From contig CAYWDX010000001.1 in assembly GCA_964456235.1 (NCBI GenBank), positions 125,935 to 189,934 on the forward strand: a DNA stretch of 64,000 nt, given 5' to 3'. Below the pieces are notes generated by a model that saw nothing but the letters and a program-made list of their open reading frames with translations, had not been told where the DNA came from and ran no database searches. This DNA is from an uncultured Candidatus Saccharibacteria bacterium. GTDB taxonomy: Bacteria > Patescibacteriota > Minisyncoccia > UBA6257 > 2-01-FULL-56-20. The position numbers were made by a program, and so were the translations under genes. Position 1 is the first letter of the stretch. Each line of letters begins with the position of its first letter. Shown piece by piece: positions 32,393-54,881 of the stretch.

Positions 32393-33178
32393 ATGAAGGA
32401 GACGAAGGTCCTGATGGGCATGCCCGTCACGGTGGAAATTGTTGATGCGCAAGCGGACGTGAACGACGGCCGAGGTGCGGAAGACGCGATTCGCGCCGTC
32501 TTCGATTATTTCAATTACATTGATGAGAAATTCAGCACCTATAAAGATGCGAGCGAAATTGTGGCGATCAACCGCGGCGAACTTCCGCCAGAACAATGGA
32601 GCGAGGATATGAAAACGGTTTTTATTCTTGCGGAAAAGACCAAGATGCTCACCGATGGCTACTTCGATATCAAGATGCCGGACGGCAAGTACGATCCTTC
32701 AGGCATCGTGAAGGGTTGGGCGGTGTGGAATGCATCAGACATCATCACGAAGGCCGGCTTCAAACATTTTTATGTTGACGCCGGCGGCGACATTCAAACG
32801 AGCGGCATGAACGCCGAAGGGGAAAAATGGGTGGTCCACATTAAGAATCCGTGGAATAACGATGAAACCATGAAGGTGGTCTGCCTTTCGGGCGAAGGCA
32901 TCGCGACATCTGGAACCCATATCCGCGGCGATCACATCTACAATCCCCGCACGGGCGCCAAGGCGAGTGAAATCGCGAGCTTGACCGTGATCGGTCCGAA
33001 TGTCTATGAAGCTGATCGATTTGCGACGGGCGCGTTCGCGATGGGCAATAACGCAATCAGTTACATCGAAAATTTGCGCGACATGGCAAGTTTCCCTCTC
33101 GAGGGATATGCGATCGACAACAAGAAGATTGTTACGATGACGAACGGCTTCGCGAAGTATGTGGCCGAAGCGTCGTGA
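32393..33178 (+). CDS. ApbE-family FAD:protein FMN transferase-like protein
   Basis: ApbE-like motifs DPSGIVKGWAV and YVDAGGDI; 261 aa (shorter than typical ApbE). Confidence 0.65.
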   Translation: MKETKVLMGMPVTVEIVDAQADVNDGRGAEDAIRAVFDYFNYIDEKFSTYKDASEIVAINRGELPPEQWSEDMKTVFILAEKTKMLTDGYFDIKMPDGKYDPSGIVKGWAVWNASDIITKAGFKHFYVDAGGDIQTSGMNAEGEKWVVHIKNPWNNDETMKVVCLSGEGIATSGTHIRGDHIYNPRTGAKASEIASLTVIGPNVYEADRFATGAFAMGNNAISYIENLRDMASFPLEGYAIDNKKIVTMTNGFAKYVAEAS

Positions 33179-33668
33179 AATTTGCTGCCGGCTCCGCGGG
33201 AAGAATCCAATCGCCGAGCCATTTTAGAAAGGCTTCCCGCCGCGGCTCAAAAACAACTTCTTGAATGTGCATGCGCGGGTGCGCCTCGGGCGTGTATTCA
33301 TAGTGGCCGCGCAATTCGCCATCATCAAAAAGCCGCAAGTGGTATTGGTATTCCCATCCATCGAGGATGCGCAGGCTAAGCACTTCGCCATCGTCGCGCC
33401 ACGCGAAGAAATGATTGCCGAATCCTTTGTTCCCGATGTCCGTTAAGAATTTTTTAATATCCGCTCCTTCGCGCAGCCAGCCGAGCAAATATTCCTGCCG
33501 GCCAACGTGGTTCAACAAACCGACCTGCGAAAGCAGGTCACGAAAGAATGGGTTGAACGGCGAGTAAAGGCGCCAAAAGCCAAACTTGACACGATGCCAT
33601 GCGTCCCCCGTGAGAGGAATTTTTGATGCTGGAATCTTCGACTTGAGCTCTTCGGTAACCGCTTGCAT
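33132..33668 (-). CDS. hypothetical protein
   Basis: 178-aa ORF with no recognisable motifs; convergent 47-nt overlap with the apbE end; start uncertain. Confidence 0.4.
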   Translation of the reverse strand: MQAVTEELKSKIPASKIPLTGDAWHRVKFGFWRLYSPFNPFFRDLLSQVGLLNHVGRQEYLLGWLREGADIKKFLTDIGNKGFGNHFFAWRDDGEVLSLRILDGWEYQYHLRLFDDGELRGHYEYTPEAHPRMHIQEVVFEPRREAFLKWLGDWILPAEPAANFTTLRPHTSRSRSSS

Positions 33669-33712
33669 TAATCCTTATTATATCATCGCCGGCCGCCAAA
33701 AATCCAGCATTT

Positions 33713-34375
33713 TTATGCTGCGGCGTGATCAAATGCAATATCCCAAACTTTCCCGGCCACGTTCCGTGCGGGTCCATGATAGGGATAATGATGGAGATCA
33801 ATGAACGGCAGACTGTTGCATTCGATCACGCCGCAAACCTGTTCTTGCCACGGCTTCGCCATGTCTTCGATCATGAAGTCAACGCCGACGAGTGGGTCAT
33901 CGAGCACCTCGCCGATTTTTATGAACATCTTTTCGTTTTCGGGATGGATCATTGGAATTTCTGTTGTCGTCGCGCCGACGGCCCGGCTCACTTTTGGATG
34001 CAGTACCACCATCACTCCTTTTTTAGGGACGCTATTCAGCGAAAGATTTTGCTCCTTGAGCGTCGCGCGAACTTCATCGTCAACGACGATCATATGAAAA
34101 ATTGGCCCAGCGCGCAACGGATTTTTATTTTCATGCTCGATGAGCGTCTTGATGGCGTTGTTACCATCCCCCATCACATGCGGCGCCTCCCGCCGCATCA
34201 CGCCCACGATTTTCCCGCCGACCAGCGTGACGCGGAAGACAAAACCCGGGAGTTCCTGCTCCACGACGACGCGCGGGGAAATTTCTTTGGCTTTTTGAAA
34301 CGCCTTGGTGAGTTCGATCGCATTCGTAATGTGAAGATAGGTGTGGCGACTGCGCGACCCGAGCGTTGGCTTCAC
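33713..34375 (-). CDS. ATP-grasp ligase, C-terminal portion (ATP-binding and catalytic half)
   Basis: ISPRVVVEQELPGFVFRVTLVGGKIVGVMRR...GVDFMIED: ATP-grasp central and C-domain pattern; lacks the N-terminal half, which sits in the upstream ORF in a different frame. Confidence 0.6.
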   Translation of the reverse strand: MKPTLGSRSRHTYLHITNAIELTKAFQKAKEISPRVVVEQELPGFVFRVTLVGGKIVGVMRREAPHVMGDGNNAIKTLIEHENKNPLRAGPIFHMIVVDDEVRATLKEQNLSLNSVPKKGVMVVLHPKVSRAVGATTTEIPMIHPENEKMFIKIGEVLDDPLVGVDFMIEDMAKPWQEQVCGVIECNSLPFIDLHHYPYHGPARNVAGKVWDIAFDHAAA

Positions 34376-34452
34376 GATCGCGGCGGCTGGGGCGGCGGAT
34401 GGCGCAGCGGCCGGCCCCGGCGCGTTTTTAATTTTTATTTCATTAAAAATTT

Positions 34453-35031
34453 CTAAAGCCCCGGCGAGCGAGCGCTTCCGCCCTGCGGCACTGGGATCCC
34501 CGCCTTCTTAAATTTCGAAAGTATGATGCCCTTGTCATCCATCCAATTGAGCGCCGCTTCAGGGGCGTTCCGGGGACGCGGGAGACCGTCAAAGAAGCGC
34601 GTGTCGTCGCCGAGCGTCGCATAAAAAAGTTCGCGCGGGAGGCCGAAGGGGCGAAATTCCCGCATCAGAATCCCTCGGTGATTCGCTTCTTCCCGGAGCA
34701 CTCGCGCGCGCCAGGTATTTTCTTCATCGGGGTGCTCCATGATGCGGCCTAAGCCAAGGGCAGCCAGAATATTCAGGATTGACGGGGCCAGGCGGCCTGG
34801 TTCGAGCACGGCGATGAACGGGCGCACGGCTTGCCACAGGGCGTCGAGCGGCCGGCTGAAGTAATCAATAAAATAATCCAGCTCGATCGAAAGCCGCTCG
34901 GCGCGGTGCGAGACCGCGACCGGACCGCAATCAGCACATTCGATGCGCGCGTTCATGTTAGTTTGCGCGCCGCATGAGCTACATCGGATTTTTCGGCTGG
35001 AGCATACTCGCGTGATTCCCTTCCGTGTCAA
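34453..35031 (-). CDS. ATP-grasp ligase, N-terminal portion, with 4-Cys zinc-ribbon (possible frameshift split from the downstream ORF)
   Basis: CSSCGAQT...CADCGP zinc ribbon; ends ...DKGIILSKFKKAGIPVPQG, the typical entry to the ATP-grasp core that continues in ORF 33713..34375; the two are 77 nt apart and out of frame; an internal Met (MNARIECADCGP) is an alternative start that avoids overlap with the VOC gene. Confidence 0.5.
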   Translation of the reverse strand: MTRKGITRVCSSRKIRCSSCGAQTNMNARIECADCGPVAVSHRAERLSIELDYFIDYFSRPLDALWQAVRPFIAVLEPGRLAPSILNILAALGLGRIMEHPDEENTWRARVLREEANHRGILMREFRPFGLPRELFYATLGDDTRFFDGLPRPRNAPEAALNWMDDKGIILSKFKKAGIPVPQGGSARSPGL

Positions 35032-35392
35032 TGAACCCCGCGTAGAGTCCCACGCCCGGGATATCGTCAGGCTTGCCGGCGACCTGCATGCCGCCGAGCA
35101 CCTTGCCGCCCGCCGCAGTCACCCGCTTCATCGCCTCCTCAATGTTATCCACCGCAATCGTCACGCGCGTCATCTGATCCGGCTTCGTCTTGTCATAAAA
35201 TCCGCCGTTGATCTGCCCAGGATTTTTCACCATGCGGTTTTCATCGGTCTCGGCCGTCGTCACGACAACATAGTTCCCCATTTCGGGACCCAGCTGCTGC
35301 GACTTCCATCCAAATGCGTCCTCGTAAAATTTCATCATGCGCGCCTTGTCCTCCGCCGGCATTTCAAAATGCACCACAGGATTTGTTTTCAT
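34979..35392 (-). CDS. VOC-family (glyoxalase/bleomycin-resistance fold) protein
   Basis: 137 aa, paired beta-alpha-beta-beta-beta modules; VVHFEM...GNHASM pattern. Confidence 0.75.
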   Translation of the reverse strand: MKTNPVVHFEMPAEDKARMMKFYEDAFGWKSQQLGPEMGNYVVVTTAETDENRMVKNPGQINGGFYDKTKPDQMTRVTIAVDNIEEAMKRVTAAGGKVLGGMQVAGKPDDIPGVGLYAGFIDTEGNHASMLQPKNPM

Positions 35393-35457
35393 CGTAACGT
35401 TAATGATTTTTTAATAAGGTTTATTTGCGACGTTTTCTATTCTATCATAGGTGGGAT

Positions 35458-35488
35458 AGGTTTTCACCCCGGATATAGATTTTCACCC
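35458..35488 (+). promoter_or_regulatory. direct repeat AG[G/A]TTTTCACCC x2 (19-bp spacing) overlapping a -35 region; candidate response-regulator site
   Basis: aggttttcaccc at 35458-35469 and agattttcaccc at 35477-35488; TATATT -10 at 35501-35506 lies 7 nt before the ATG at 35513, suggesting a leaderless transcript. Confidence 0.3.
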
Positions 35489-35512
35489 TAAGCAACGCCC
35501 TATATTTCAAAC

Positions 35513-36799
35513 ATGAAGCATAAATTCTTATCGCTCACGCTCTTCATGATTACCATCCTCACGATGGCGACCAATACCTATGGGCCTCTTGCCGCGCAAA
35601 CGGCCTGGGCCCAGGCGACGCCTCCGCCGCCGGCCGGAATCAGCACGGCGGGCTCTCTTCAGGATCAGATTGATGCCAGCAATCAGCAGATTACGACGCT
35701 GAATCAGCAGATTGCGCAGTACCAGTCTGAACTCCAACAGATCGGGTCAGACAAGCGCACGCTCCAGGCGGCGATTAAATCGCTCGACCTCCAGCGCAGC
35801 ACGGTTGAGGCGCAGATCACGATCACCCAGCGCCAGATGGCGATCACACAATTGCAAGTGCAGCAACTTGGTGGCGAAATTACCGACACGCAACAGGCGA
35901 TCATGAACGACCAAAATTCTTTGGGCGCCTACATACGCGATCTTCAAAAAAATGAAAACATTCCCCTCTTGATCCAAGTGCTTTCCTCGAGCGACATCAC
36001 GCAGGCGTGGACGGATCTGAATGCAAACTTGCAGATGCAGGAATATGCGCAGAACGAAATGCAGGCGCTCCAGGTACAGGAGAAAAGTTTGGCGAACGCG
36101 AAGGCAAATTCGCAGGCGAAGCAACAGGTCCTTACGTCGCAACAAAAATCTCTCGCAACGCAACAGAAAACGCTCGCGCAAACCGTGCAGTCGAAGAATC
36201 AACTTCTCGCCGACACGAATGCGAAGGAATCAACGTACCAACAACTTCTTGCCGCGGCTGAGGCGGAGCTGAACAGTTTCTCTGCGTTCGTGCAGAATGC
36301 TGGTGGATCAAAATTACTTGCCAATCAAACGAATTGCGACGCCTGGGGCTGCTATTACAGTCAGCGCGATTCAGCATGGGGCGCGCAGGCGCTGAATGGC
36401 ACGCGCTACACGCTCGCGAGCGACGGCTGCTTGATCACCTCGATGGCGATGGTGCTCACGCACTACGGCCTGCGCGACGTGACGCCCGCGACCATCAACG
36501 GGAATCCGGCGAATTTCGCATCGTATTACCCGGCCTATCTTCTCTACACGATTGTGGTGGATGGCGTGACAGCGACGCGCAAGACGGCTTCACTCGATGC
36601 CACGCTCGCAACCGGAAATCCCGTCATCGTCGGCCTCCGGGCTTATGGCGGCACGCACTTTGTCGTACTCGTGAGCGGCGCCCGAGGCCACTATATTATG
36701 CGCGACCCCTACGTCGCCGGCGGCAAAGACATCAGCTTCACCGATCGCTACGCCGTCCGCAGCATCTTCAGTATTGCGAAAGTGGTGGTGGGGAGCTAG
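35513..36799 (+). CDS. secreted coiled-coil + C-terminal Cys/His peptidase (C39-like/CHAP-like) protein; PcsB-like putative peptidoglycan hydrolase
   Basis: Signal peptide; ~250 aa Gln/Leu-rich heptad coiled coil; C-terminal NCDAWGCYYSQRDSAWG...DGCLITSMAMVLTHYG...GGTHFVVLV resembles peptidase_C39-like/CHAP catalytic Cys and His regions. Confidence 0.7.
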   Translation: MKHKFLSLTLFMITILTMATNTYGPLAAQTAWAQATPPPPAGISTAGSLQDQIDASNQQITTLNQQIAQYQSELQQIGSDKRTLQAAIKSLDLQRSTVEAQITITQRQMAITQLQVQQLGGEITDTQQAIMNDQNSLGAYIRDLQKNENIPLLIQVLSSSDITQAWTDLNANLQMQEYAQNEMQALQVQEKSLANAKANSQAKQQVLTSQQKSLATQQKTLAQTVQSKNQLLADTNAKESTYQQLLAAAEAELNSFSAFVQNAGGSKLLANQTNCDAWGCYYSQRDSAWGAQALNGTRYTLASDGCLITSMAMVLTHYGLRDVTPATINGNPANFASYYPAYLLYTIVVDGVTATRKTASLDATLATGNPVIVGLRAYGGTHFVVLVSGARGHYIMRDPYVAGGKDISFTDRYAVRSIFSIAKVVVGS

Positions 36800-37867: not shown

Positions 37868-38413
37868 CTAGAATTTCACCGAAACCGCCTGTTTCTCCGC
37901 GTCCGAAAGATTGCCGAAAAATTCCATCGCCGTGAATCCCATCATGCGCGCAAATAAATTCGTTGGGAAAATTTGGATCTTCGTGTTCAGATCGCGCACC
38001 ATGCCATTGTAGAAGCGGCGGGCGGCTTGGATTTTGTCTTCGGTGTCGGTCAATTCGTTCTGTAAATTCAAAAAGTTTTCGTTCGCCTTGAGCTGCGGAT
38101 AATTTTCCGCAACCGCAAAGAGTGATTTCAACGCGCCGCTCAAAGCATCTTCCGCGCCGGCCTTCGCCGCGCCCGTCGCCTGCATCGCCCGCGATCGCGC
38201 CTGCGTCACTTTTTCAAAAACGCCCGACTCGTGCGCCATGTACCCCTTCACCGATTCAACGAGGTTCGGAATGAGGTCGTAGCGGCGCTTCAACTGCACG
38301 TCGATGTCGGACCACGCCTCCTGCGCCCGGTTGCGCGTGCGAACGAGGCCGTTATATGCGGCGATGAGCCATACGACGATGATGACGACTGCTGCGACTA
38401 TCCACGTGATCAT
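37868..38413 (-). CDS. lemA: LemA-family membrane protein
   Basis: N-terminal TM plus conserved LemA pattern NGLVRTRNRAQEAWSDIDVQLKRRYDLIPNLVESVKGY. Confidence 0.88.
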   Translation of the reverse strand: MITWIVAAVVIIVVWLIAAYNGLVRTRNRAQEAWSDIDVQLKRRYDLIPNLVESVKGYMAHESGVFEKVTQARSRAMQATGAAKAGAEDALSGALKSLFAVAENYPQLKANENFLNLQNELTDTEDKIQAARRFYNGMVRDLNTKIQIFPTNLFARMMGFTAMEFFGNLSDAEKQAVSVKF

Positions 38414-41764: not shown

Positions 41765-41938
41765 ATTATAATCGGGGCTCTGATTTTTCCGCAAAGAGCT
41801 GCCAGGCACTTACGAGAATGAGAACGATGCCGCAGAGGGCCGAACTCCACTTCGCGAGGGAGATGTCGCTGAATTGAAGGAGCCACGGCGAGAGCAAGAG
41901 CCAGATCCCGATCGCGCCCTGTGTCCACGTTGCTGCCA
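41765..41938 (-). CDS. small SPW-repeat membrane protein (57 aa, GTG start)
   Basis: Frame not in the ORF track: (V)AATWTQGAIGIWLLLSPWLLQFSDISLAKWSSALCGIVLILVSAW...; contains an LSPW motif and two TM helices; TAA stop immediately upstream of the GTG. Confidence 0.35.
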
Positions 41939-41996
41939 CGCAACTATTTTACGCCGCCCCGCGCAGGCGAGTCAAATCAAAAACCTTGCCAGAAGC

Positions 41997-43469
41997 CTAT
42001 CGTACGAAGAGATAATCAGGATTGGTCACCTTTCCCGAAGCGAACTTGCCCAAATAAGTGCCGCTTGCGTCAAATATCTGGACGTTGTTGCTGGTATTAT
42101 CCGAAACATAGATCGTTCCATTTGCATCAACCGTCACGCCAGAGGTTCCCCTAAACTGTCCGGTACTCGTGCCATACGACCCGAATTTCATAAGGAAATT
42201 TCCACTCGAATCAAATTTCTGAACGCGATCCTGGTTACCGCTACCGCCGTCTGCGACATAAATATTGTTACCTGAATCGACGGCGAGGCCACGGATGTTA
42301 AGGAACTGTCCATCGCTCGAACCATATGAGCCGAACTGCGCGAGGTAGTTACCGCCAGAGTCAAACTTTTCAACCCGCAAATGTGAAATGTTCCCGCTGT
42401 CAACCGCATATACATTGCCACTTGAATCAACGCCGATGCCGGAAACACCGTTGAATTGGCCGTCGCCCGATCCTGAAGTGCCGAACTGAAGCACATAGTT
42501 TCCATTCGAATCGAATTTCTCTACCCGATGGTTCCCTCCATCGCCCGCATAGACATATCCATCGAGGCTAGTACCAATACCCAACTGGGACCCCCCTGCC
42601 GCGCTAAATTGGCCGTTCCCACTTCCTGACGACCCAGACTGGAGCAGATAGTTCCCATTTGAATCAAATTTCTGGATGCGGTGATTCCCTCCGTCTTGCA
42701 CCCAGATATTGCCGGTAGAATCCACCGTCACGCCCCACGCAAAGCTCAATTGGCCGTTCCCACTTCCTGAAGAACCGACGGTGGCGAGATAATTCCCGTT
42801 GTAATCAAATTTTTGGACGCGGCTAGCGCTGAAATCTGCGACCCACACGCACGGACCGCCGTTTGCGCATCCATAATCTTCCTTAATGAGCGTGAGTGAA
42901 GTGCCTTTCGCGTAGAGGAAAGGGATGGGACCGCCGCCGCCCGTTTCTTGTCCAGAGTATTTCACCGACTGTACATTTGCCGTAATTTCATAATTCGTCC
43001 CATCGGTCGCATAGGCGTAGTAAGAACCGGTCGAGGTCTGGTTTTTCGGGTCAACCGGGAGAAGTCCGATCGGTGAGCCGCCGGTCACTTTGGTGAGGTC
43101 AACTGGAATCCATCCCGTACCATCAACGTTGCGATAATTTTGCGAAGAAACACACCAGTAGGTTTGCCCAGCGGGAAGGGTAACCAAGCCGAGCGATGAA
43201 CAGGTGCTGGTCTGTGCACCGGAGAGCGTAGGATCGGGCACTGAAACGTAAATAGTGTTCGCGGCTCCCAGCGACGTGATGTTTTTGGCGAGCGGGAGGA
43301 CTGAATCCAGTTGGCTGATGTCAGCAATGCGCGTGCTGTCGTTCGCCTGGAGCGAAAGCTCGGACGGGTTGAGGAAATAAATGACGGTGAGCGCGCCAGC
43401 CGCGATGACCGCGATCACGATCAAAATTTCTGGCAACGTGAAACCGCGCCGGCGAATAATATTCTTCAT
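41997..43469 (-). CDS. type IV pilin-like protein fused to C-terminal NHL-repeat beta-propeller domain
   Basis: N-terminus MKNIIRRRGFTLPEILIVIAVIAAGAL (G|FTLPE prepilin motif); first ~190 aa resemble the pilA product (...TDGTNYEITANVQSVKYSG...AKGTSLTL); then ~6 NHL repeats (SGSGNGQF.....GV.VDS.GNIYV.D..N.R.QKFD). Confidence 0.75.
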   Translation of the reverse strand: MKNIIRRRGFTLPEILIVIAVIAAGALTVIYFLNPSELSLQANDSTRIADISQLDSVLPLAKNITSLGAANTIYVSVPDPTLSGAQTSTCSSLGLVTLPAGQTYWCVSSQNYRNVDGTGWIPVDLTKVTGGSPIGLLPVDPKNQTSTGSYYAYATDGTNYEITANVQSVKYSGQETGGGGPIPFLYAKGTSLTLIKEDYGCANGGPCVWVADFSASRVQKFDYNGNYLATVGSSGSGNGQLSFAWGVTVDSTGNIWVQDGGNHRIQKFDSNGNYLLQSGSSGSGNGQFSAAGGSQLGIGTSLDGYVYAGDGGNHRVEKFDSNGNYVLQFGTSGSGDGQFNGVSGIGVDSSGNVYAVDSGNISHLRVEKFDSGGNYLAQFGSYGSSDGQFLNIRGLAVDSGNNIYVADGGSGNQDRVQKFDSSGNFLMKFGSYGTSTGQFRGTSGVTVDANGTIYVSDNTSNNVQIFDASGTYLGKFASGKVTNPDYLFVR

Positions 43470-43527
43470 GAATAAATTATACCATACGATGCCGCGCAGG
43501 CGCGGCTACGACTTGAATGTAACGTTG

Positions 43528-44376
43528 CTATTTCAACGCCGCATCAATCACCTGCGCGAAATCGGCGTAGGGTTGCGCGCCGAGAACCGATGTTCCATTC
43601 ACGAAAAACGATGGCGTAGAATTGATTCCTGCTGCGGTGGCAGCCGCTCTCTCCTGTGCGACGAGCGACGCATTTTTATTCGTGTCGACACAGCTCGTGA
43701 AGGTCGTCATATTCAATCCCAAACCCTGGGCGAGCTTTACGAAGAGCGCCCGGTTATAGAAACCGTCGTTTTCCCCGCCCCCCTTCTGTTCATCACCCAC
43801 CTTGGCGGCGTAGAGCGCGTCGTGATATGGCCACAACTTGCCCTGATCGTTTGCGCATTCTGCTGCCTGCGCCGCCGCCGTTGATTCCGGCCCCAGGAAC
43901 GGGAAATTGCGGAACACTATTTTCACTTTTCCGCTGTTCACGTAATTCGCGATGATCTGCGGCTCCGTTTGCGAAAAGAATTGCGCGCAGAACGGGCACT
44001 GGTAATCGCCGTATTCGATGATCGTGACCGGCGCATTTTGTGCTCCGAGAATGGCGTCGCGCGCGCCGAGTTTCATGATCGCCTCGTTCGTTGCAAGAGC
44101 GCCCGCGCCTGCGCCGTTGCCGCCGCTGGGCGTCACGTTCGGGCGATACATCGTAGAAAAAACGAGCGCTCCGCCGATCACGGCGGCGGCAACTAAAACA
44201 CTGATAGCGAGAAAACGGTCGCGGGGCGCCTCGATCGGATGCGCCGGGTGCGAAGGCATCACCGGACCCATATTTTCGTGATTCCGCATTTCGTCCATGA
44301 AACCAGCATAGCACACCGGCGCTGTTCTATAATGAAAGGCAATGCCGATCGCAACTTCCCTTGCCCATTGGCTCAT
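43528..44376 (-). CDS. DsbA-family thiol:disulfide oxidoreductase (membrane-anchored)
   Basis: YQCPFCAQFF CxxC active site in a thioredoxin fold; N-terminal TM. Confidence 0.85.
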   Translation of the reverse strand: MSQWAREVAIGIAFHYRTAPVCYAGFMDEMRNHENMGPVMPSHPAHPIEAPRDRFLAISVLVAAAVIGGALVFSTMYRPNVTPSGGNGAGAGALATNEAIMKLGARDAILGAQNAPVTIIEYGDYQCPFCAQFFSQTEPQIIANYVNSGKVKIVFRNFPFLGPESTAAAQAAECANDQGKLWPYHDALYAAKVGDEQKGGGENDGFYNRALFVKLAQGLGLNMTTFTSCVDTNKNASLVAQERAAATAAGINSTPSFFVNGTSVLGAQPYADFAQVIDAALK

Positions 44377-44932
44377 AACGTATCGTTACCCGATCGCCTA
44401 CCCTCTCGCGATCGCGGAGGGGCCGGTCCTTATGATGATCGCGGGCTTCCTCGTGCGCACCGGCTTTCTCGATTTTTGGCCGATCTATTTTATTTTGATG
44501 GCGGGCGATCTCACCGGCGACATCGTGTGGTACAAAATCGGGCAGCATGGGGCGCGTCGATTCATCGACCGGTTTGGAAAATTTTTCAGCGTTTCCGAAG
44601 CCCACGTACTCCGCGCGGAAAAATTTTTCCAAGAGCATCAAACAAAAATTCTTTTTGTCTCAAAAATTACGATGGGCCTGGGATTTGCGCTCGCGACATT
44701 GATGGCCGCCGGCGCCGCGCGCGTTCCCTTCAAAAAATATATGATCGTGAACGCGCTCGGCCAGTTCATTTGGACGGGCATTCTCATGGCGATCGGCTTT
44801 TTCCTCGGCAATCTCTACACGCTCGTCGATAAAAGCCTGCGTTGGGGCTTCGTCACGGCCATCATCATCATGTTTGCGCTCATGATGATGGGATTTGCGA
44901 AGTACGTGCGGAAACGGGTGTCGGAGATGTAA
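44342..44932 (+). CDS. DedA-family (VTT domain) membrane protein
   Basis: DedA pattern ...FWPIYFILMAGDLTGDIVWYKIG..., 4-5 TM segments. Confidence 0.8.
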   Translation: MPIATSLAHWLITYRYPIAYPLAIAEGPVLMMIAGFLVRTGFLDFWPIYFILMAGDLTGDIVWYKIGQHGARRFIDRFGKFFSVSEAHVLRAEKFFQEHQTKILFVSKITMGLGFALATLMAAGAARVPFKKYMIVNALGQFIWTGILMAIGFFLGNLYTLVDKSLRWGFVTAIIIMFALMMMGFAKYVRKRVSEM

Positions 44933-44941: not shown

Positions 44942-46537
44942 ATGACGTTGTCTATCGTGATCCCTACGCTGAACGAAGCGTCGGGCATCGAGCGCCTCCT
45001 CGCGCAAATAAAAAATAAGCTTACCGAGATCGATTATGAGTTGATCGTCACCGACGACGGCTCGACCGACGGCACGGTCGGCATCGCGAAGCGCTACGCG
45101 AAAGTGATTTCTGAACCGAACCCGAATCGCACGATCGGCACGAACCGCAATAAGGGGGCTCGCCACGCGAAGGGCGAGTTTTTGGTTTTTATTGACGCCG
45201 ACATGTTCGTCCCCGAGCCGAATCATTTTTTCAAAGTGCTCCTTGATGAATTTCGCCGCGATCCGCAGCTCCTCGCTCAAACCGTAAATATTAAAGTGTA
45301 TCCCGACGAGGCGACGCGCGCGGACGACCTCTTCCTCGGCATCAGCAACCTCACGATGCGGTTCATGAACAATGCTCTCCGCATCGGCGCCTCGTCGGGC
45401 GAATTTCAAATCGTGCGGCGTTCGGCATTTGAACAAGTCGGCGGCTTCCGCGAACATCTCGTGGTCGCTGAAGATCAAGACCTCTTCCGGCGCCTCGCGA
45501 AAATCGGGCATACGCGCTTTGAGCATGGGCTCGAGGCGTGGAATGACGGGCGGCGCCCGCACACGGTTGGCTGGCTGCGGCTTTTCGCCCAATGGATTCG
45601 CAACTCAATCTCGTTGAGTTTCTGGGGCCGTTCCTACGACAAGACTTGGCATGAAGTGCGCTATTGGAAAATGAGTTTTGTGATCCCCGCCTACAATGAA
45701 GAGCATTACCTCGCCGATTGCCTGAAGGCGATCATGCGGCAAAAAGAAAAAACTTCCTACGAGATCGAGGTGATCGTGGTGAATAATGCTTCGACCGATC
45801 GCACCAGAGAAGTAGCGAAAGGATTTGCCGGCGTGAAAGTCGTTGACGAACCAAAAAAAGGGATCGTGTATGCGCGGCGCGCCGGTTTTCTCGCAGCGAC
45901 GGGCGATCTTATCGCGAATATCGATTCCGATTCGCGCCTCACGCCTGGTTGGATCAATAAAGTGGTGCAGGCGTTCGCGCGGGATGAAAAATTAGTTGCG
46001 ATTTCGGGCCCGTTCATCTATTACGACGCGCCGCGTTCGGTACGCATGGTTACACGCATGTTTTATGGCATCGGCTACCTCTTCTATTTCATCAACCGTT
46101 TCATACTACACACCGGATCCATGCTCCAGGGCGGAAATTTTGTCGTCAAAAAAACGGCGATCGACGCCATCGGCGGCTATGACACGTCAATCAGTTTTTA
46201 TGGAGAGGACACCGACCTCGCGCGACGCTTGAATAAAATCGGCCGCGTGCGATTTACCTTTAACCTGCCAATGTACTCTTCGAGCCGACGTCTCGCGAAG
46301 GAGGGCGCCTTCACGATCGGCCTCCGCTACGCCATGAATTATTTTTGGACGACTTTTTTCGGAAGGCCGTTCACGCACGCCTACATTGATATCCGCCCGG
46401 GCGAATCAAAACGCGGCGCCTCACTTTCCTTTACGCCGAACGAGGGGTGGAAGGAATGGGTGATCGGCGTAACCGCCCTCGTCCTTTTCGTCGCGATCAT
46501 TATTGGTCTTGCATACGCAATCTATTATTTCGCCTAG
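44942..46537 (+). CDS. tandem double-domain family-2 glycosyltransferase
   Basis: Two GT-A modules: LSIVIPTLNEASGIERLL...VTDDGSTDGT and SFVIPAYNEEHYLADCL...VVNNASTDRT; DxD-type motifs (IDAD, IDSD); C-terminal TM. Confidence 0.85.
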   Translation: MTLSIVIPTLNEASGIERLLAQIKNKLTEIDYELIVTDDGSTDGTVGIAKRYAKVISEPNPNRTIGTNRNKGARHAKGEFLVFIDADMFVPEPNHFFKVLLDEFRRDPQLLAQTVNIKVYPDEATRADDLFLGISNLTMRFMNNALRIGASSGEFQIVRRSAFEQVGGFREHLVVAEDQDLFRRLAKIGHTRFEHGLEAWNDGRRPHTVGWLRLFAQWIRNSISLSFWGRSYDKTWHEVRYWKMSFVIPAYNEEHYLADCLKAIMRQKEKTSYEIEVIVVNNASTDRTREVAKGFAGVKVVDEPKKGIVYARRAGFLAATGDLIANIDSDSRLTPGWINKVVQAFARDEKLVAISGPFIYYDAPRSVRMVTRMFYGIGYLFYFINRFILHTGSMLQGGNFVVKKTAIDAIGGYDTSISFYGEDTDLARRLNKIGRVRFTFNLPMYSSSRRLAKEGAFTIGLRYAMNYFWTTFFGRPFTHAYIDIRPGESKRGASLSFTPNEGWKEWVIGVTALVLFVAIIIGLAYAIYYFA

Positions 46538-46557
46538 TATTGTGATACAAGAAGATC

Positions 46558-47946
46558 ATGTCTGCCCGCAGTAAGGCGATCGTTTTCCTTCTTTTTCTCG
46601 GGGATGTCGTCGCGCTGTATGCGTGCCTTTTCCTTACGCTCTATGTGCGTTACGGCGGCGCATTTTACGATGCGTTCCTTGATGCGCACGTGCTGCCATT
46701 CTCGATCGTTTTTATACCGTGGCTGCTCATATTTTATATCGCAGGCCTCTATGACCTCCGCCGCCTCCGCAATAATCTCGATTTTTTTAAAACGTTAGCG
46801 CTCTCGCTCGGCACAAACGCGATCGTTGCCGTGCTCGTATTCTATCTCGTACCCGCGTTCGGCATCGCGCCCAAAACCAATCTTTTTATTTTCATTTTGA
46901 TTTTTGCCGTTATCGAATTGTTCTGGCGGCGCTTATGGAACCGGATGACGGAGTCGGCGGAGGCGCCGAATCGGGTGTTGCTCGTGGGGAATGGGAAAAC
47001 GACGGAAGAAATTCTTGAAACGCTCGCCGGCAATCCACAGTTCGGCTACACGATCGCCGCGCGCATTTCGGAAGATAAAGCCGATGAAAATCCCTCGGCT
47101 CTCGCGCGCATCGTGCGTGAGGCGAGCGCGAACCTCGTTGTTGTGCCGCGCGAGTTAAAACGGAAGGATACGCTCGCCCCGGCGCTCTATCAACTTTTTG
47201 GCGCCGGCACGATCATTCTCGACCTCGATACATTTTACGAAATTGTGATGCGCAAAGTGCCGCTGGGCGACGTGCGCGAAGCTTGGTTTTTGGAAAACAT
47301 CGAAGGCTCGGCGCGCTTTTACGATCCTTTCAAGCGCGCGGTGGAATTTTTATTGGCGCTCGTGACTGGCATCGTGCTCTTGCCGATCGAGATTTTGATC
47401 GCGCTCCTCGTGGCGGCCACCTCGCGCGGGCCGATCTTCATTCGGCAGGCGCGCGTCGGCGCGCTCGGCCGCAATTTCACGCTCATCAAATTCCGCAGCA
47501 TGGTGGCGCTCGCGCCGGACGGCCAGGCCGAAGCGAATGGCGCCCAGTGGGCCGCGAAAAACGACCGCCGCATAACGCCCGTGGGGCGGCTTCTCCGCGC
47601 GAGCCACCTTGACGAGCTCCCGCAGCTCTGGAACATCGTCCGCGGGCATACTTCATTTGTAGGCCCGCGCCCGGAACGCCCAGAATTCGTTGAGAAGTTA
47701 AAGCGCGAGATCCCCTTCTACGAGGTCCGGCTCTTGGTGAAGCCGGGCGTGACCGGGTGGGCGCAGATCAATTATCCAGCCGACGAGACGCTCGACGACG
47801 TGCGCCAAAAACTCCAGTATGATATTTACTACTTAAAAAACCGCTCGCCGATTCTTGACCTCGCGATCATTTTGAAAACGCTCAAATCGTTTTTCATTAA
47901 TCCGCAGCGGGAGAAAAAACTGGTGCAGCCGGCGAACCAATCCTAG
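46558..47946 (+). CDS. polyprenyl-phosphate sugar phosphotransferase (WbaP/WcaJ-like initiating enzyme)
   Basis: Bacterial sugar transferase domain: GPIFIRQARVGALGRNFTLIKFRSM...DELPQLWNIVRGHTSFVGPRPERP. Confidence 0.9.
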   Translation: MSARSKAIVFLLFLGDVVALYACLFLTLYVRYGGAFYDAFLDAHVLPFSIVFIPWLLIFYIAGLYDLRRLRNNLDFFKTLALSLGTNAIVAVLVFYLVPAFGIAPKTNLFIFILIFAVIELFWRRLWNRMTESAEAPNRVLLVGNGKTTEEILETLAGNPQFGYTIAARISEDKADENPSALARIVREASANLVVVPRELKRKDTLAPALYQLFGAGTIILDLDTFYEIVMRKVPLGDVREAWFLENIEGSARFYDPFKRAVEFLLALVTGIVLLPIEILIALLVAATSRGPIFIRQARVGALGRNFTLIKFRSMVALAPDGQAEANGAQWAAKNDRRITPVGRLLRASHLDELPQLWNIVRGHTSFVGPRPERPEFVEKLKREIPFYEVRLLVKPGVTGWAQINYPADETLDDVRQKLQYDIYYLKNRSPILDLAIILKTLKSFFINPQREKKLVQPANQS

Positions 47947-47965
47947 GGTCGCTATAATAAAAGGA

Positions 47966-48907
47966 ATGAAAATTATCGTGACGGGCGGAGCGGGATTCAT
48001 CGGTTCGCATGTGGTTGACGCGTATGTGAAAGCCGGGCACCGCGTGGCGGTGATCGATAACTTACTGACCGGCTTCCGCAAGAATTTGAATCCGCGCGCA
48101 ACGTTTTACAAAGCGGACATCACCGACCGCCATGCGATGAGCCGCATTTTCAAAAAAGAGCGGCCGGAAATCGTGAACCACCACGCGGCGATCGCCGAGG
48201 TCGTGAAGTCCCTGCGCGACCCGATCCCCACGCTCACGACGAATGTGCTCGGCACTACGAACGTGCTCTTGGCGTTCGGCGAATACGGGCGCGGGCACGG
48301 CAACCATGGGAACCCAGGGCGCAGTAAATTTATTTTTTCTTCGACCGGCGGCGCCATGTATGGCGACCCGAAGCGCTTGCCTGCAGATGAACGCGAAAAA
48401 ACGATCACACTTTCCCCGTATGGCCTTTCAAAACAGCTCGGCGAAGAAACGATAAAATTTTATGCCCGCCATTACGGGTTCAATTATTTCATTTTCCGTT
48501 ATGCGAACGTGTTCGGCCCGCGCCAGAATCCGAAAGGCGAGGCCGGCGTAATCGCCATATTTGGCGGGCTCATCAAGGCGGGTAAGCGGCCGATCATTTT
48601 TGGCGACGGCACGAAGGCGCGCGATTATGTCTATGTTGATGACGTGGCGCATGCGAACCTCCTCGCGCTCCGGCGCGGGAATGGCGAAACGGTGAATATC
48701 GGGCGCGGGAAATTGACGAGTGATCGAGAAATTTTTGACGCGGTTGCCGCGGAACTGGAATTCCGTGAGAAGCCGATCCATGCGCCGTATCGCACCGGCG
48801 AGCTCTATAAGATCAGCTTGAATGCGCAGAAGGCGCGGCGCGTGCTCGGATGGAAACCGAAGATGCCATTCAAGCTCGGCGTGCGGAAGGCGCTGAAAAA
48901 TTTGTAA
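47966..48907 (+). CDS. NAD-dependent nucleotide-sugar epimerase/dehydratase (SDR family)
   Basis: VTGGAGFIGSHVV Rossmann motif, YGLSK catalytic YxxxK. Confidence 0.88.
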   Translation: MKIIVTGGAGFIGSHVVDAYVKAGHRVAVIDNLLTGFRKNLNPRATFYKADITDRHAMSRIFKKERPEIVNHHAAIAEVVKSLRDPIPTLTTNVLGTTNVLLAFGEYGRGHGNHGNPGRSKFIFSSTGGAMYGDPKRLPADEREKTITLSPYGLSKQLGEETIKFYARHYGFNYFIFRYANVFGPRQNPKGEAGVIAIFGGLIKAGKRPIIFGDGTKARDYVYVDDVAHANLLALRRGNGETVNIGRGKLTSDREIFDAVAAELEFREKPIHAPYRTGELYKISLNAQKARRVLGWKPKMPFKLGVRKALKNL

Positions 48908-48910
48908 CGC

Positions 48911-50383
48911 ATGTTCAAACGAATACGATCGTTTTTGTTTGAAAATAAAACGGCGAAACAGACCGTCGCAAAAAATACGTTCTGGCTTTCGGTAACGAAC
49001 TTTGGCGGCCGCGCGGTGAAATCGATCATCGTCCTCTACGCCGCCCGCGTTTTGAACACGGCGGGCTACGGCGTATTTTCCTACGCGGTCACGCTCGCCG
49101 GTTTTTTCACGCTCTTCCTCGACCCCGGCGTGAACGCGATGGTGATGCGCGAAGTGCCGAAAGGCGACGAAGCAGAAAAGCGGTCGTTCCTCTCGACGAC
49201 GTTTGTCATCAAACTGATCCTCCTCGGCGTCGGCATCCCCTTCGTGCTACTGGTGGCGCCGCTCTTCAGCACGCTCCCGGGCGCGCCCGAACTGTTGCCG
49301 CTGGTCGCGCTCCTCGTGAGTTTTGACACCATCCGCGAGCTCTTCTCGGCCTTCATGCGCGCCCGGGAGCGGATGGAATGGGAGACCGCGAGCTTTATTA
49401 CGACGAACGTCGTCATTGTCCTTGCTGGCCTTTACTACCTTTCCATCTCCGCCACGCCTGCGGCGTTTGCCTGGGCCTATATCACCGGCACCGTCTGCGG
49501 GACGCTCGTTTCCATCGTCTTCCTCCGGGACTATCTCGGTGATCTTTTCTCCCGTTTTTCTAAAAAACTGGTTGGCCCTATCGTGCGCTCCGCGTGGCCG
49601 TTTGCAATCACGAGCGCCCTCGGCGCCCTGCTCACGAGCGCGGACGTCATCATCATCAGCTGGCTGCGGAGCGCATCCGACGTCGGCATTTATTCTGCGG
49701 CGGTGCGCATCGTGCAGGTGCTCTATTTGGTCCCCACCATTTTCCAATTCAGCACGCTGCCGCTCATCGCCCAGCTCGCGAATAAAGACAATGAGCGGTT
49801 GCGGAGCGTATTCGAACGGACGCTCGGCATGATTTTCCTCACGTCAGTCCCGCTCGCGATCGGCGGCATCATTCTTGCAAAACCGATCATGTCGCTCGTT
49901 TTCGGACCGCCCTACGTGCCCGGCGCGCCATCCTTCCAGGTCCTCATGCTCACGCTGTTCTTCGATTTCCCGCTCACGGTGATCAGCACCGCGATCTTCG
50001 CCTATAACCGGCAAAAAAATCTTATCGTTTCCGCTTCGATCGCCGGCGGGCTGAACGTAATTCTTGATTTACTCCTCATCCCGCCGTTCGGCATCACGGG
50101 TTCGGCGTTCGCAACGCTCATTGCGCAGGCAGCCACCAATTGGTACCTGTGGTCCGTCATGAAAAAAATAAATTATTTTGAAGTGTTGTCGAAACTCGGG
50201 AAAATTACGGCGGCAGGAATCGGGATGGGCGCCGTCACCCTCGCGCTTTATTTCGCCCACATCCATGCCGCTTTCAACATCGGCATTTCCGCGCTGGCTT
50301 ACTTCGCGTTTTTGAAATTATTCAACGAACCCTTGATGCAGGAGGTGCTGGTCACGCTCCACCTTACGAAAGCGACCGTTTAA
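48911..50383 (+). CDS. Wzx-type oligosaccharide flippase (polysaccharide biosynthesis protein, MOP superfamily)
   Basis: 490 aa, ~12-14 TM segments, N-terminal NTFWLSVTNFGGRAVKSIIVLYAARVL pattern. Confidence 0.85.
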   Translation: MFKRIRSFLFENKTAKQTVAKNTFWLSVTNFGGRAVKSIIVLYAARVLNTAGYGVFSYAVTLAGFFTLFLDPGVNAMVMREVPKGDEAEKRSFLSTTFVIKLILLGVGIPFVLLVAPLFSTLPGAPELLPLVALLVSFDTIRELFSAFMRARERMEWETASFITTNVVIVLAGLYYLSISATPAAFAWAYITGTVCGTLVSIVFLRDYLGDLFSRFSKKLVGPIVRSAWPFAITSALGALLTSADVIIISWLRSASDVGIYSAAVRIVQVLYLVPTIFQFSTLPLIAQLANKDNERLRSVFERTLGMIFLTSVPLAIGGIILAKPIMSLVFGPPYVPGAPSFQVLMLTLFFDFPLTVISTAIFAYNRQKNLIVSASIAGGLNVILDLLLIPPFGITGSAFATLIAQAATNWYLWSVMKKINYFEVLSKLGKITAAGIGMGAVTLALYFAHIHAAFNIGISALAYFAFLKLFNEPLMQEVLVTLHLTKATV

Positions 50384-51197
50384 GGCTCGAAAGAAATCGG
50401 TGCAATCTCCGCTGCGCGCCAAGCGGCAGGAACGAATACAGTTGCTGCGCCCGCGCGACCAGATAGGCCTTTCCGTAACCCGGGTACTCATGGCGATGCA
50501 GCTGCACGGTTCGCAAAATTTCTTCTGACTGCGAGCGTTTAAAAATGAACGTTTTGCTTTCTTCGGTCAGCCGGTAACGGATAAAATATTCCGGAAAATT
50601 ATAGAACGTGCCTCGGTTCCCCATCTTGAGCCACAAATCCCAGTCCTCGGCATTTTTGAACGGCCCGTACCCGCCAACGTCAAGCGCGAGCTTGCGCCGG
50701 AAGAGCACTGTCGAATGCGTGAAAGGGTTTGCGAGAAGCGCCCGCGCCCGAATGGTCGCGTCGTTCTCCGATTTCAAATAGCGGAATTTTTCTTGGTCGT
50801 GTTCGTCAACAACGATCACGCCGCCTCCGACGACAACGCAATCCGGGTGTGCATCCAAATAGGCGACCTGTTTTTTTAGTTTATCGCGATCACTCCACGT
50901 ATCATCATCGTCGAGGCGCGCGGCATATTCGCCGCGGGCCGCGCGCAATCCTTCATTCAACGTCCCCGAAATATCGGGATAATTATTTTTTTCATGATGG
51001 ACCGGGCGCACGCGGTGGTCGCTTTTCGCCAATGCATCGAGATACGCCCGCGTCCCGTCAGTCGAGGCGTCGTTAATTGCGATCAATTCCCAGTCATGGA
51101 ACGACTGCGCCGCAATGCTCTCCACCGCGCGTTTCAGCGTCGCCACGCGATTGAATGTCGGGAGAATGATGCTCACCCGCGGATCCCCGTTTTGCAT
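50364..51197 (-). CDS. family-2 glycosyltransferase
   Basis: VSIILPTFNRVATLKRAVESIAAQSFHDWELIAINDASTDGT; DDDD motif. Confidence 0.85.
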   Translation of the reverse strand: MQNGDPRVSIILPTFNRVATLKRAVESIAAQSFHDWELIAINDASTDGTRAYLDALAKSDHRVRPVHHEKNNYPDISGTLNEGLRAARGEYAARLDDDDTWSDRDKLKKQVAYLDAHPDCVVVGGGVIVVDEHDQEKFRYLKSENDATIRARALLANPFTHSTVLFRRKLALDVGGYGPFKNAEDWDLWLKMGNRGTFYNFPEYFIRYRLTEESKTFIFKRSQSEEILRTVQLHRHEYPGYGKAYLVARAQQLYSFLPLGAQRRLHRFLSSLKRSLS

Positions 51198-51307
51198 CCC
51201 ACTATTATATACTCGGAACGCCGGGATTATATACTCCGGCCGAAAGATCGAAACGCCGAAAAGGCTATGAAGATCGGTTTTTTTGTGCTAGAGTAGCCTC
51301 GTAAAAC

Positions 51308-52081
51308 ATGAAAACTATTATTTTGTGCGGTGGCCGTGGCTCGCGCATGAAAGAGGAAACCGAATTTCGTCCGAAGCCGCTCGTCACCGTGGGCGACAAG
51401 CCGATCCTGTGGCACATCATGAAAATCTATGCCCATCATGGGTTTAATGATTTTATTCTCGCGCTCGGCTACAAGGGCCACATGATTAAAGAATATTTCC
51501 TAAACCGCCGCATCATTGCGGGCGACTTCTCGCTCAACACGAAAACCGACGAAAAGACATTTCACGATGAACCGCCGGAAGATTTCAAAATCACTTTTGC
51601 CGAAACGGGTCTCGATAGCAATACGTCTGATCGCGTGCTCTTGAGCAAGAAATATCTCGGGGACGATGATTTCATGGTCACGTTCGGAGACGGCGTCTCG
51701 GACATTGATCTCAAGGCGCTCGTGGATTTCCATAAAAAACAGGGCACGGTCGGGACCGTCACCGGCGTCCACCTGAAATCGAAGTATGGCGTCATGAAAT
51801 TTGATCCGGAAAAGAAAAAGGTCACTCGATTCGACCAGAAGCCATTGATGTCGGACCATGTCGCCGGCGGTTTCATGATTTTCAAGAAGAAAGCGCTCGA
51901 TTATTTCCGCCCGGGCGAAATTCTCGAAATCGGACTCGGCAGGATGGTTGAGGAAGGGCAACTTTCGCTCTATCAACACGAAGGATTCTGGCGCGCGATG
52001 GACACCTACCAAGAAGTAGAAGAGTTGAATGACCTGTGGCGCAAGAACCAACCTTGGGCAATATGGAAAAAATCCTCGTAA
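51308..52081 (+). CDS. rfbF: glucose-1-phosphate cytidylyltransferase
   Basis: MKTIILCGGRGSRMKEETEFRPKPLV...ILALGYKGHMIKEYF, typical of RfbF (CDP-glucose pyrophosphorylase). Confidence 0.88.
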   Translation: MKTIILCGGRGSRMKEETEFRPKPLVTVGDKPILWHIMKIYAHHGFNDFILALGYKGHMIKEYFLNRRIIAGDFSLNTKTDEKTFHDEPPEDFKITFAETGLDSNTSDRVLLSKKYLGDDDFMVTFGDGVSDIDLKALVDFHKKQGTVGTVTGVHLKSKYGVMKFDPEKKKVTRFDQKPLMSDHVAGGFMIFKKKALDYFRPGEILEIGLGRMVEEGQLSLYQHEGFWRAMDTYQEVEELNDLWRKNQPWAIWKKSS

Positions 52082-53082
52082 CCGGCAACGAAGGATACAT
52101 CGGCTCCGTTCTCGTCGAAGAGCTCCTGGCGAAAGGTTATACGGTGACCGGCCTTGACTCCGGCGCCTTTAGCGACGTTGCATTCGTCCCCCGCCACAAT
52201 CCTCATCAGCAAATTTATAAAGATATTCGCGACGTGGAGCGCAAGGATTTGGAGGGGTGCGATGCCGTCATCCACCTCGCGGGGCTTTCGAACGATCCCC
52301 TGGGAGATCTTGACCCGTCGCTTACCTACGACATCAACCTCAACGCGACCGTCCGCCTCGCAGACTTTGCGAAACAGGCCGGCGTGAAGCGTTTTCTTTT
52401 TTCTTCTTCGTGCAGCTTGTACGGAGTTGCGGGCGACGCTCCGGTTGCCGAAGAAGCATCGTTCAATCCGCAAACGCCGTATGCCGAGTCGAAAGTGAAG
52501 GCGGAGGCGGCGATCGCACCGTTTGCCGGACCGGATTTTTGCCCCGTATATTTGCGGAACTCGACCGTCTTCGGCATTTCGCCGCGCATGCGCCTTGACC
52601 TTGTCGTGCAAAACCTTGCCGCGTCGGGTTACCTGACTGGGAAAATCACCATCATGAGCGACGGCACTCCTTGGCGGCCGCTCGTCCACGTTCGGGACGT
52701 CGCGGGCGCTTTCATATTTTTCTTGGAACAGCCGGCCGGCCGCGTTGGCAACCGGGCGTTCAACATCGGGAAGACGGAAAATAATTTGCGCGTGCGCGAT
52801 ATCGCGGAAATCGTCAAAACCGTTTTGCCGAACACGACCGTGGTGATCGAAAATAAAACGCCGAGCGACACGAGGTCCTACCGCGTTGATTTTTCAAAAC
52901 TGTATGCGCTCGGTTTTGTCCCTCAACACGACGTGCTCGCCGGCGTGCGGGAGATTTGTGAGGCCTTCAAAACTCACGGCCTTACCGCGCAGGATTTTCA
53001 GTCAGACAGCTTCATCACGCTCAAGCGGTACCTCGCCCTGAAGCAAAGCGGGCGCATGGGCAACGACCTGCGCATCAAATAG
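52063..53082 (+). CDS. NAD-dependent epimerase/dehydratase (SDR) acting on a CDP- or NDP-hexose
   Basis: ILVTGNEGYIGSVLV Rossmann motif; YAESK catalytic YxxxK; start moved to the MEKILVTG Met. Confidence 0.8.
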   Translation: MEKILVTGNEGYIGSVLVEELLAKGYTVTGLDSGAFSDVAFVPRHNPHQQIYKDIRDVERKDLEGCDAVIHLAGLSNDPLGDLDPSLTYDINLNATVRLADFAKQAGVKRFLFSSSCSLYGVAGDAPVAEEASFNPQTPYAESKVKAEAAIAPFAGPDFCPVYLRNSTVFGISPRMRLDLVVQNLAASGYLTGKITIMSDGTPWRPLVHVRDVAGAFIFFLEQPAGRVGNRAFNIGKTENNLRVRDIAEIVKTVLPNTTVVIENKTPSDTRSYRVDFSKLYALGFVPQHDVLAGVREICEAFKTHGLTAQDFQSDSFITLKRYLALKQSGRMGNDLRIK

Positions 53083-54859: not shown

Positions 54860-54881
54860 TCGGGTGCGCGAACGCAACCGC

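Follow-up and report, generated by a model that had tools for sequence, protein, structure and literature searches.

A modular type IV pilin carrying a six-bladed NHL β-propeller, a candidate adhesin of an uncultivated Patescibacteria lineage

A 64,000-nucleotide stretch of a patescibacterial contig (CAYWDX010000001.1 of assembly GCA_964456235.1, positions 125,935 to 189,934; GTDB lineage Patescibacteriota, Minisyncoccia), referred to below as the window, carries a gene whose 490-residue product consists of a complete type IV pilin followed by a six-bladed NHL β-propeller. GyrB encoded in the window shares 81-85% identity with proteins labelled Minisyncoccia bacterium and Candidatus Paceibacterota bacterium, which places the host in the Patescibacteria/CPR, in line with the original prediction. 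The open reading frame (ORF) was located exactly where the original prediction had placed it, at 41997-43469, and is read from the minus strand, which had not been specified. No domain of the fusion scored below its curated threshold, and proteins from other samples repeat the architecture, which puts the fusion far beyond chance. We consider the protein to be, probably, a modular type IV pilin of the Patescibacteria (candidate phyla radiation, CPR; Minisyncoccia/Paceibacterota) that serves as a pilus-displayed adhesin or host-recognition module.

The N-terminus of the fusion (MKNIIRRRGFTLPEILIVIAVIAAGAL) passes as a class III signal, with the prepilin junction MKNIIRRRG/FTLPEILIVIAVIAAGAL, a mature protein starting with FTLPE, and Gly at −1, the hydrophobic Phe at +1, and Glu at +5 all in place by direct reading. 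The canonical prepilin leader and hydrophobic helix claimed in the original prediction were borne out by Pfam N_methyl (PF07963; 22.9 bits against a cutoff of 21.2, a small margin, with homologs scoring higher), by TIGR02532 (26.2 against a cutoff of 16.3), and by a helix in the AlphaFold2 (AF2) model. In a BLASTP comparison, residues 7-194 of the fusion aligned with residues 5-211 of the 211-residue pilin encoded at 4460-5095 (39% identity, E = 8e-36). This alignment covers the short pilin in full, up to its last residues GTSLTL, and thus reproduces the parallel over the first ~190 residues that had been noted before. The fusion contains four cysteines, C90 and C106 in the pilin head and C201 and C207 in the linker; C106 was invariant and C90 at least 90% conserved across 150 relatives of the pilin module.

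Structure prediction gave both the pilin head and the propeller for which it had been proposed as a check. A single-sequence AF2 run, with a predicted local distance difference test score (pLDDT) of 50 and an unusable pilin half, was superseded by a run with a 72-sequence alignment, which reached a mean pLDDT of 91 and a predicted template modelling score of 0.76. In the latter model, α1 comprises helices 12-33 and 35-61 (~50 residues), broken at the family-invariant Asn34-Pro35, and the pilin head contains five β-strands (72-75, 103-107, 152-155, 160-165, and 185-189). The block pLDDT was mostly 80-96 in the pilin half, with lower values at residues 31-40 and 171-190, and 76-78 in the linker, while the propeller was modelled with 24 strands over residues 208-489. 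Since propellers dominated both fold-search lists, the pilin module was searched as a 17-sequence profile against PDB sequences, and all of the 22 matches were type IV pilins or pseudopilins, including Geobacter PilA-N (the best, E = 4.3e-8), Thermus PilA4, GspG, PAK pilin, and PilA5. The first four of these matched across α1, and some alignments extended to residues 80-114. By model and profile together, the N-terminal half is predicted to be a type IV pilin, with a ~50-residue α1, hydrophobic in its first half, against a β-sheet head, and the reservation that this region might not be predicted as a pilin fold fell away.

The C-terminal half scored 91.5 bits with Pfam NHL (PF01436; cutoff 20; E = 1.5e-26) in four separately significant stretches, well above what the hidden Markov model demands. 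Six xVxKFD motifs were located by inspection at residues 217, 264, 315, 365, 415, and 462, and the "about six NHL repeats" first described are thus six blades. Five of them are full blades (223-269, 270-320, 321-370, 371-420, and 421-467), and the sixth is a velcro blade split between residues 208-222 and 468-490, giving a closed propeller that superposes on solved NHL domains. The B-C loops were the least conserved elements across ten family members (majority fraction 0.35, against 0.64 for the strands and 0.63-0.66 for the A-B and C-D loops), and blades 4 and 5 of the fusion carry insertions in these loops. Variability is also seen in the D-A loops, in the residues right behind the conserved GSGNGQF. 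In the usual propeller topology, the "top" face is made up of the B-C and D-A loops; it is ligand-binding in NHL and YWTD propellers and catalytic in SMP-30- and PAL-type enzymes. The structures nearest to the propeller in the fold search were ligand-binding (TRIM-NHL, LRP4/6, nidogen), and enzymes ranked behind them. Since the putative top face is hypervariable, diversifying ligand recognition appears favored and a conserved active site disfavored; the variable B-C loops favor a binding face over a catalytic site.

A search for homologous fusions, as the original prediction had suggested, returned at least nine further proteins from different samples with the same pilin-NHL architecture (P0008, P0010, P0030, P0057, P0091, P0094, P0166, P0195, and P0250). 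The junction motif DYGCxxGGPCVW is common to several of them.

Modular pilins were defined by Raynaud et al. (2021; PMC8179133), whose InterPro survey of November 2020 yielded more than 1,200 proteins with 264 architectures, many of them from CPR bacteria. The fusion conforms to this definition, with an N-terminal IPR012902/N_methyl pilin module that aligns end to end with a stand-alone pilin, a short linker of 12 residues, and a non-pilus domain, here NHL. The predicted role of modular pilins, ligand binding at the pilus tip, is likewise that proposed for the fusion. One pilin-NHL protein ("IPR012902 - IPR001258 x3") is listed in Dataset S1 of the same study (PMC8179133). The kind of protein is therefore already described, the pilin-NHL architecture was catalogued in 2021, and the fusion is unsurprising to a pilus specialist; in the library searched, no paper on a pilin-NHL protein in Patescibacteria was found. 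Two modular pilins of Streptococcus sanguinis, PilB with a vWA domain and PilC with a concanavalin-like lectin, are adhesins that have been modelled at the tip (PMC8179133, PMC9934059). The fusion differs from described modular pilins in its cargo, a six-bladed NHL propeller never characterized on a pilin, and in its pilin module, a full-size paralog of the putative major pilin and not a small, dedicated minor one. Its gene is also unlinked to the pil locus, and its host is a CPR bacterium.

PilX2 of the saccharibacterium Nanosynbacter lyticus TM7x is, like the fusion, a CPR pilin with a C-terminal β-propeller; its deletion halves host binding without abolishing filaments, and it has been proposed as a tip adhesin (PMC11623550). 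However, the PilX2 propeller is a seven-bladed RCC1 domain while that of the fusion is a six-bladed NHL domain, PilX2 is encoded inside a pilus locus while the fusion gene lies outside, and PilX1 and PilX2 have no predicted PilD signal while the signal of the fusion is canonical (PMC11623550). Compared by published description, the fusion is analogous to PilX2 in architecture rather than a demonstrable homolog of it. In diderm type IVa pili, the bulky PilY1/PilC adhesins also place a propeller at the pilus tip, and some contain NHL repeats (vWA-NHL-NHL-...-IPR008707 in Dataset S2 of Raynaud et al., 2021; PMC8179133). PilY1, however, is not a pilin but docks on a minor-pilin complex, whereas the fusion is itself a pilin. 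The PilY1/PilC family (IPR008707 / Neisseria_PilC) was absent from the Pfam and NCBIfam matches of the fusion up to E = 1, and the fusion was not assigned to these tip adhesins.

Known NHL binding domains, namely those of TRIM71/LIN-41, TRIM2/3, Thin, and Brat and the sensor domain of Mycobacterium tuberculosis PknD, were also compared. The NHL domain of the fusion sits on a pilin and not on a TRIM or kinase scaffold. The top face of TRIM-NHL proteins is basic and RNA-binding, whereas the propeller of the fusion is acidic (isoelectric point 4.8; 23 Asp + Glu against 16 Lys + Arg) and extracellular. Nucleic-acid binding of the TRIM-NHL type is unlikely because of this acidity.

A minor or tip pilin with a binding propeller, and thus a candidate adhesin, is consistent with all of these findings and has a precedent in TM7x PilX2 (PMC11623550). 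A prepilin peptidase encoded outside the window would cleave the protein after Gly9, and the PilB/PilC machinery (1445-4397), which is the sole type IV pilus (T4P) machinery encoded in the window and presumably the one that assembles the fusion, would insert it into the pilus via the α1 helix as a low-abundance subunit. With S. sanguinis PilB/PilC and TM7x PilX2 as models, its position would most probably be the pilus tip, since pilus growth proceeds from tip to base and the tip best accommodates bulky modular pilins. The acidic propeller would then project outward and bind through its variable face, formed by the B-C loops together with the post-GQF positions of the D-A loops, and the ligand would probably be a protein or glycan on the surface of another cell.

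Several points weigh against this interpretation. The fusion gene lies 36.9 kb from the pilus operon (~37 kb in the original prediction), no pilin-NHL homolog examined adjoins T4P machinery, and no Peptidase_A24 (PilD), PilM, or PilT was found among the ~50 window ORFs scanned, which agrees with the earlier statement that no pilD is present in the window. The mature N-terminus is atypical in its Pro at +4, where the homologs have Ile or Val. The inter-domain geometry in the AF2 model is no reliable evidence, and the assignment of loops to the top or bottom face was taken from general propeller topology, not from coordinates. Moreover, the pilin module is a paralog of the major pilin and not a GspH/I/J/K-like tip pilin, and the tip location is consequently proposed by analogy only.

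The unlinked gene, here and in all relatives examined, would also suit a surface-anchored protein that is not a filament subunit, with the pilin module acting as an export signal and a membrane or short-pseudopilus anchor, and with the propeller held at the cell surface for receptor or substrate capture, as in the pseudopilins of type II secretion systems or the archaeal "bindosome" substrate-binding proteins. The very many cargo-bearing pilin-like proteins in CPR genomes fit such an anchor as well, as does the lack of a retraction ATPase or PilM/N/O in the window. However, the whole pilin head is kept, not the signal alone, and it shares 39% identity with the operon pilin. The pilin head (0.61) and the propeller (0.58) were equally conserved in the ten family members, which a mere anchor would hardly account for, and the modular pilins studied experimentally sit in filaments. 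A surface anchor therefore appears rather unlikely to us.

The propeller was also considered as a pilus- or surface-displayed enzyme, i.e., a six-bladed lactonase, lyase, or esterase (SMP-30, PAL, or Vgb type) with a substrate on the host cell or in the environment. Pfam SGL matched the fusion with 30.3 bits against a cutoff of 26.3, weaker Phytase-like and Mala_s_1-like matches were found in the fusion and Arylesterase and Vgb_lyase matches in homologs, one homolog is named SMP-30/gluconolactonase family protein by NCBI, and modular pilins with peptidase cargo exist. The score for the ScyF equivalog was 209.6, below the cutoff of 350, and identity with ScyF was rejected. The fusion did not show the family cutoff and the conserved active-site face that mark ScyF and the SMP-30/gluconolactonases, and an SMP-30-type assignment was rejected on the cutoffs and on conservation, the putative top face being variable. 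We regard an enzymatic role as unlikely.

A pilin module of the major-pilin and not the GspH-K type might instead make the fusion the main subunit of a fully decorated filament of its own, a homopolymer coated with propellers along its length; according to Raynaud et al., a flexible linker would make a position in the shaft possible. This arrangement is quite improbable. No dedicated ATPase or platform gene was found beside the fusion gene, here or in relatives, the several paralogs with different cargo per genome fit alternative low-copy subunits better, and the 12-residue linker is short and probably disulfide-constrained. The remaining explanation, an assembly chimera or sequencing artefact that joined a pilin gene to an unrelated NHL gene, had been raised in the original prediction and could be suspected in a metagenome-assembled source with repetitive DNA such as NHL repeats, but it is hardly credible, given at least nine proteins of other samples with the same architecture, several of them sharing the junction motif, a second assembly in which a Logan contig (SRR12313479) carries the gene with 100% identity over 2001 nucleotides (possibly from the same reads), a level GC content of 0.53-0.54 over the pilin/NHL junction, and a single ORF without frameshift across the fusion.

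The family to which the pilin module belongs was surveyed with an exhaustive phmmer search of residues 1-212 against 1.84 billion cluster representatives, which returned 2,607 representatives at E ≤ 1e-3, of which 566 reached E ≤ 1e-30. Of the 150 best relatives, 141 were extended at the C-terminus by 100 residues or more. For a census of cargo, these extensions were clustered and representatives were scanned with Pfam. Lectin-type cargo accounted for 99 of the 150 in a single cluster, whose scanned members P0167 and P0175 matched the concanavalin-like Laminin_G_3. NHL cargo was found in six (the fusion itself included), PPC-repeat cargo in six that formed one cluster (scanned members P0205 and P0245), and a Peptidase_S74 chaperone domain in one (P0311); the remaining cargo fell into small clusters and singletons, of which the scanned ones had no Pfam match. 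The lectin-like jelly roll of TM7x PilX1 parallels this dominant lectin cargo (PMC11623550). Big_7 cargo also occurred among the matches of a word-indexed search. When run with the pilin module alone, that search missed the fusion itself and the full-length pilin-NHL relatives, which the exhaustive search found, and absence from it is thus no evidence of absence.

The nearest relatives of the pilin module were other modular pilins (44-57% identity), while the short pilin of the same window reached 39%, which indicates that the carrier is an established lineage and not a recent local duplication. A "DYG" junction was present in 30 of the 150 members, in lectin-type and NHL-type proteins alike, and this common boundary suggests that cargo may have been exchanged there. 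P0057 and P0166 are two pilin-NHL paralogs of one Ca. Paceibacterota metagenome-assembled genome (GCA_035541415.1). In another locus (L001 10001-14377, the same as L022), three consecutive large pilins were found, of which P0010 and P0250 are convergent pilin-NHL paralogs and the third has 464 residues and a C-terminus with weak β-propeller signals. An integrase, a Replic_Relax protein, and a TrwB-like ATPase are encoded a few kb away, and the trio may thus sit in a mobile region. A further locus (L006) encodes a pilin-lectin protein. In P0038 (608 residues), an NHL propeller and a further C-terminal domain follow a different pilin scaffold, and the N-terminal 200 residues of the protein are homologous and 36% identical (E = 2e-27) to the 206-residue pilin at 819-1439; NHL propellers have thus been placed on two pilin types.

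Linker-specific DNA patterns found no metagenome contig at first and then only that of P0057 itself (one JGI contig), so that the NHL variant looks uncommon, although its collection-wide frequency was poorly sampled. A scan of genome contigs with the family alignment gave no NHL fusion among the matches listed, the patterns matching generic pilins. Taking the family as a whole, we tentatively propose, as a possibility on the doubtful side, that the pilin module (~195 residues) serves throughout the Paceibacterota/Minisyncoccia lineage as a carrier cassette, behind whose conserved ...GTxLxLxPxDYG junction lectin, PPC, Ig-like, peptidase-chaperone, and NHL or other propeller domains are swapped, with several paralogs on one machine and the cargo set encoding which host cells are recognized. 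If this is true, the cargo would be a modular host-range determinant comparable to the receptor-binding proteins of phages, and the independent grafting of NHL onto two pilin scaffolds would reflect selection for this binding module.

The coordinates of the fusion gene, its parts, and the genes discussed with it are collected in Table 1. The pilin-pilB-pilC-second pilin operon spans 819-5095, and the 206-residue pilin at its end is a candidate priming or tip minor pilin.

Table 1. Features of the pilin-NHL gene and associated genes in the window
Feature	Position	Strand	Basis
Pilin-NHL gene, complete, 490 aa + stop codon	41997-43469	-	ORF list, ATG to stop
Class III (prepilin) leader, residues 1-9 MKNIIRRRG, predicted cleavage after Gly9	43443-43469	-	N_methyl and TIGR02532 scores
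Pilin α1 helix, residues 10-61, N-terminal half hydrophobic, kink at invariant Asn34-Pro35	43287-43442	-	AF2 and profile
Pilin globular head, residues 62-195, Cys90/Cys106, ends GTSLTL like the short pilin	42885-43286	-	BLASTP and AF2
Linker, residues 196-207 (KEDYGCANGGPC), Cys201 and Cys207	42849-42884	-	Conserved motif
Six-bladed NHL β-propeller, residues 208-490	42000-42848	-	
Extended -10 TGgTATAAT, ends 6 nt before the fusion ATG	43476-43484	-	Read from sequence
DsbA-like thiol-disulfide oxidoreductase, directly upstream of the fusion gene	43528-44376	-	Thioredoxin_4 E = 5.9e-37, DSBA E = 1.9e-16
Short pilin, 211 aa, same family, presumed major pilin	4460-5095	-	N_methyl 36.3 bits; directly upstream of pilB
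PilB assembly ATPase	2676-4397	-	T2SSE E = 5e-117
PilC platform protein	1445-2650	-	T2SSF E = 1.3e-47
Second-class pilin, 206 aa, MRHKG/QSIIEV, end of pilBC operon	819-1439	-	N_methyl 21.7 bits against a cutoff of 21.2

The position beside dsbA and the trxB-grx genes given in the original prediction was confirmed, with dsbA upstream and grx, trxB, groES, and groEL downstream of the fusion gene. The DsbA-like protein may plausibly oxidize both Cys pairs of the fusion. No DsbA gene was found next to the homologs in four loci (L001, L004, L019, and L021). A functional link of the fusion to dsbA, trxB, and grx was rejected since the neighbors are not conserved in relatives and the fusion gene has its own -10 box, and the adjacency to dsbA is thus incidental or at most opportunistic. 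A TATAAT-like box was found to end 6-9 nucleotides before the start codon of at least 11 of 50 window genes (e.g., those at 15944-16762, 30460-32325, 37868-38413, 44342-44932, 44942-46537, 47966-48907, and 50364-51197), and a motif like the Shine-Dalgarno sequence in only 4 of 50. These patterns suggest that the fusion gene may have its own promoter and a leaderless mRNA, and that leaderless mRNAs may be common in this organism. Sigma-70 and terminator consensus scans around the fusion gene performed no better than on shuffled sequences.

A 57-residue SPW-repeat membrane protein (41766-41939, minus strand; PF03779, 42 bits against 31.5) occupies the apparent 290-nucleotide gap between the fusion gene and grx; its ORF is preceded by TTGACT-18 nt-TAAAAT (41975-41946), with the -10 element ending 6 nucleotides before the GTG. 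A VTT/DedA-family gene lies near the fusion gene and also next to P0166. Just past the dsbA and VTT genes, at 44942-63444, the pilin-NHL gene is adjoined by a surface-glycan locus with glycosyltransferases (GT2, GT1, GT11), sugar-nucleotide epimerases/dehydratases, a UDP-glucose dehydrogenase fragment, a Bac_transf priming transferase, a flippase, and methyltransferases. On the side of the pilus operon, a gene at 5990-8944 (minus strand), two genes upstream of the operon and past a pseudouridine synthase gene, encodes a 984-residue secreted protein with an LCAT-like α/β-hydrolase (lipase) domain and a Pro/Ser/Thr-rich region, which may be a surface or host-interaction factor. The gene for DprA (DNA-processing protein A) at 10050-11087 (plus strand) lies ~5 kb from the pilBC operon, and the pilus could accordingly have a role in DNA uptake; for the fusion itself DNA binding is unlikely, its propeller being acidic.

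Farther into the window, an EcoRI-like adenine methyltransferase gene (E = 1e-129) is followed by a GmrSD-N/HNH endonuclease gene and a gene for a helix-turn-helix + Peptidase_M78 (IrrE-like) regulator, forming a small defense or restriction island flanked by tRNA-Ser (21054-24388). Several ORFs at 33132-36799 have no Pfam match. One of the proteins in this region (428 residues; 35513-36799) starts with a signal-like segment, continues in a long, Gln-rich stretch resembling a coiled coil, and ends in a domain that contains Cys. The gene calls at 33.7-35.5 kb are uncertain because alternative ORFs overlap there on both strands.

The general picture of type IV pili is unchanged by the fusion, which extends a known strategy. 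Little has been established about how the ultrasmall cells of CPR/Patescibacteria find and attach to their hosts, except in the cultivated Saccharibacteria, in which a propeller-bearing pilin is the best adhesin candidate, and the same design principle is found here in an uncultivated Paceibacterota/Minisyncoccia lineage, with a propeller that is of another type and well folded. Residues 208-490 of the fusion offer a concrete, soluble, expressible domain for ligand fishing. Perhaps more useful than the single gene is the census of its family, which suggests a minable catalogue of candidate host-recognition modules across CPR genomes.

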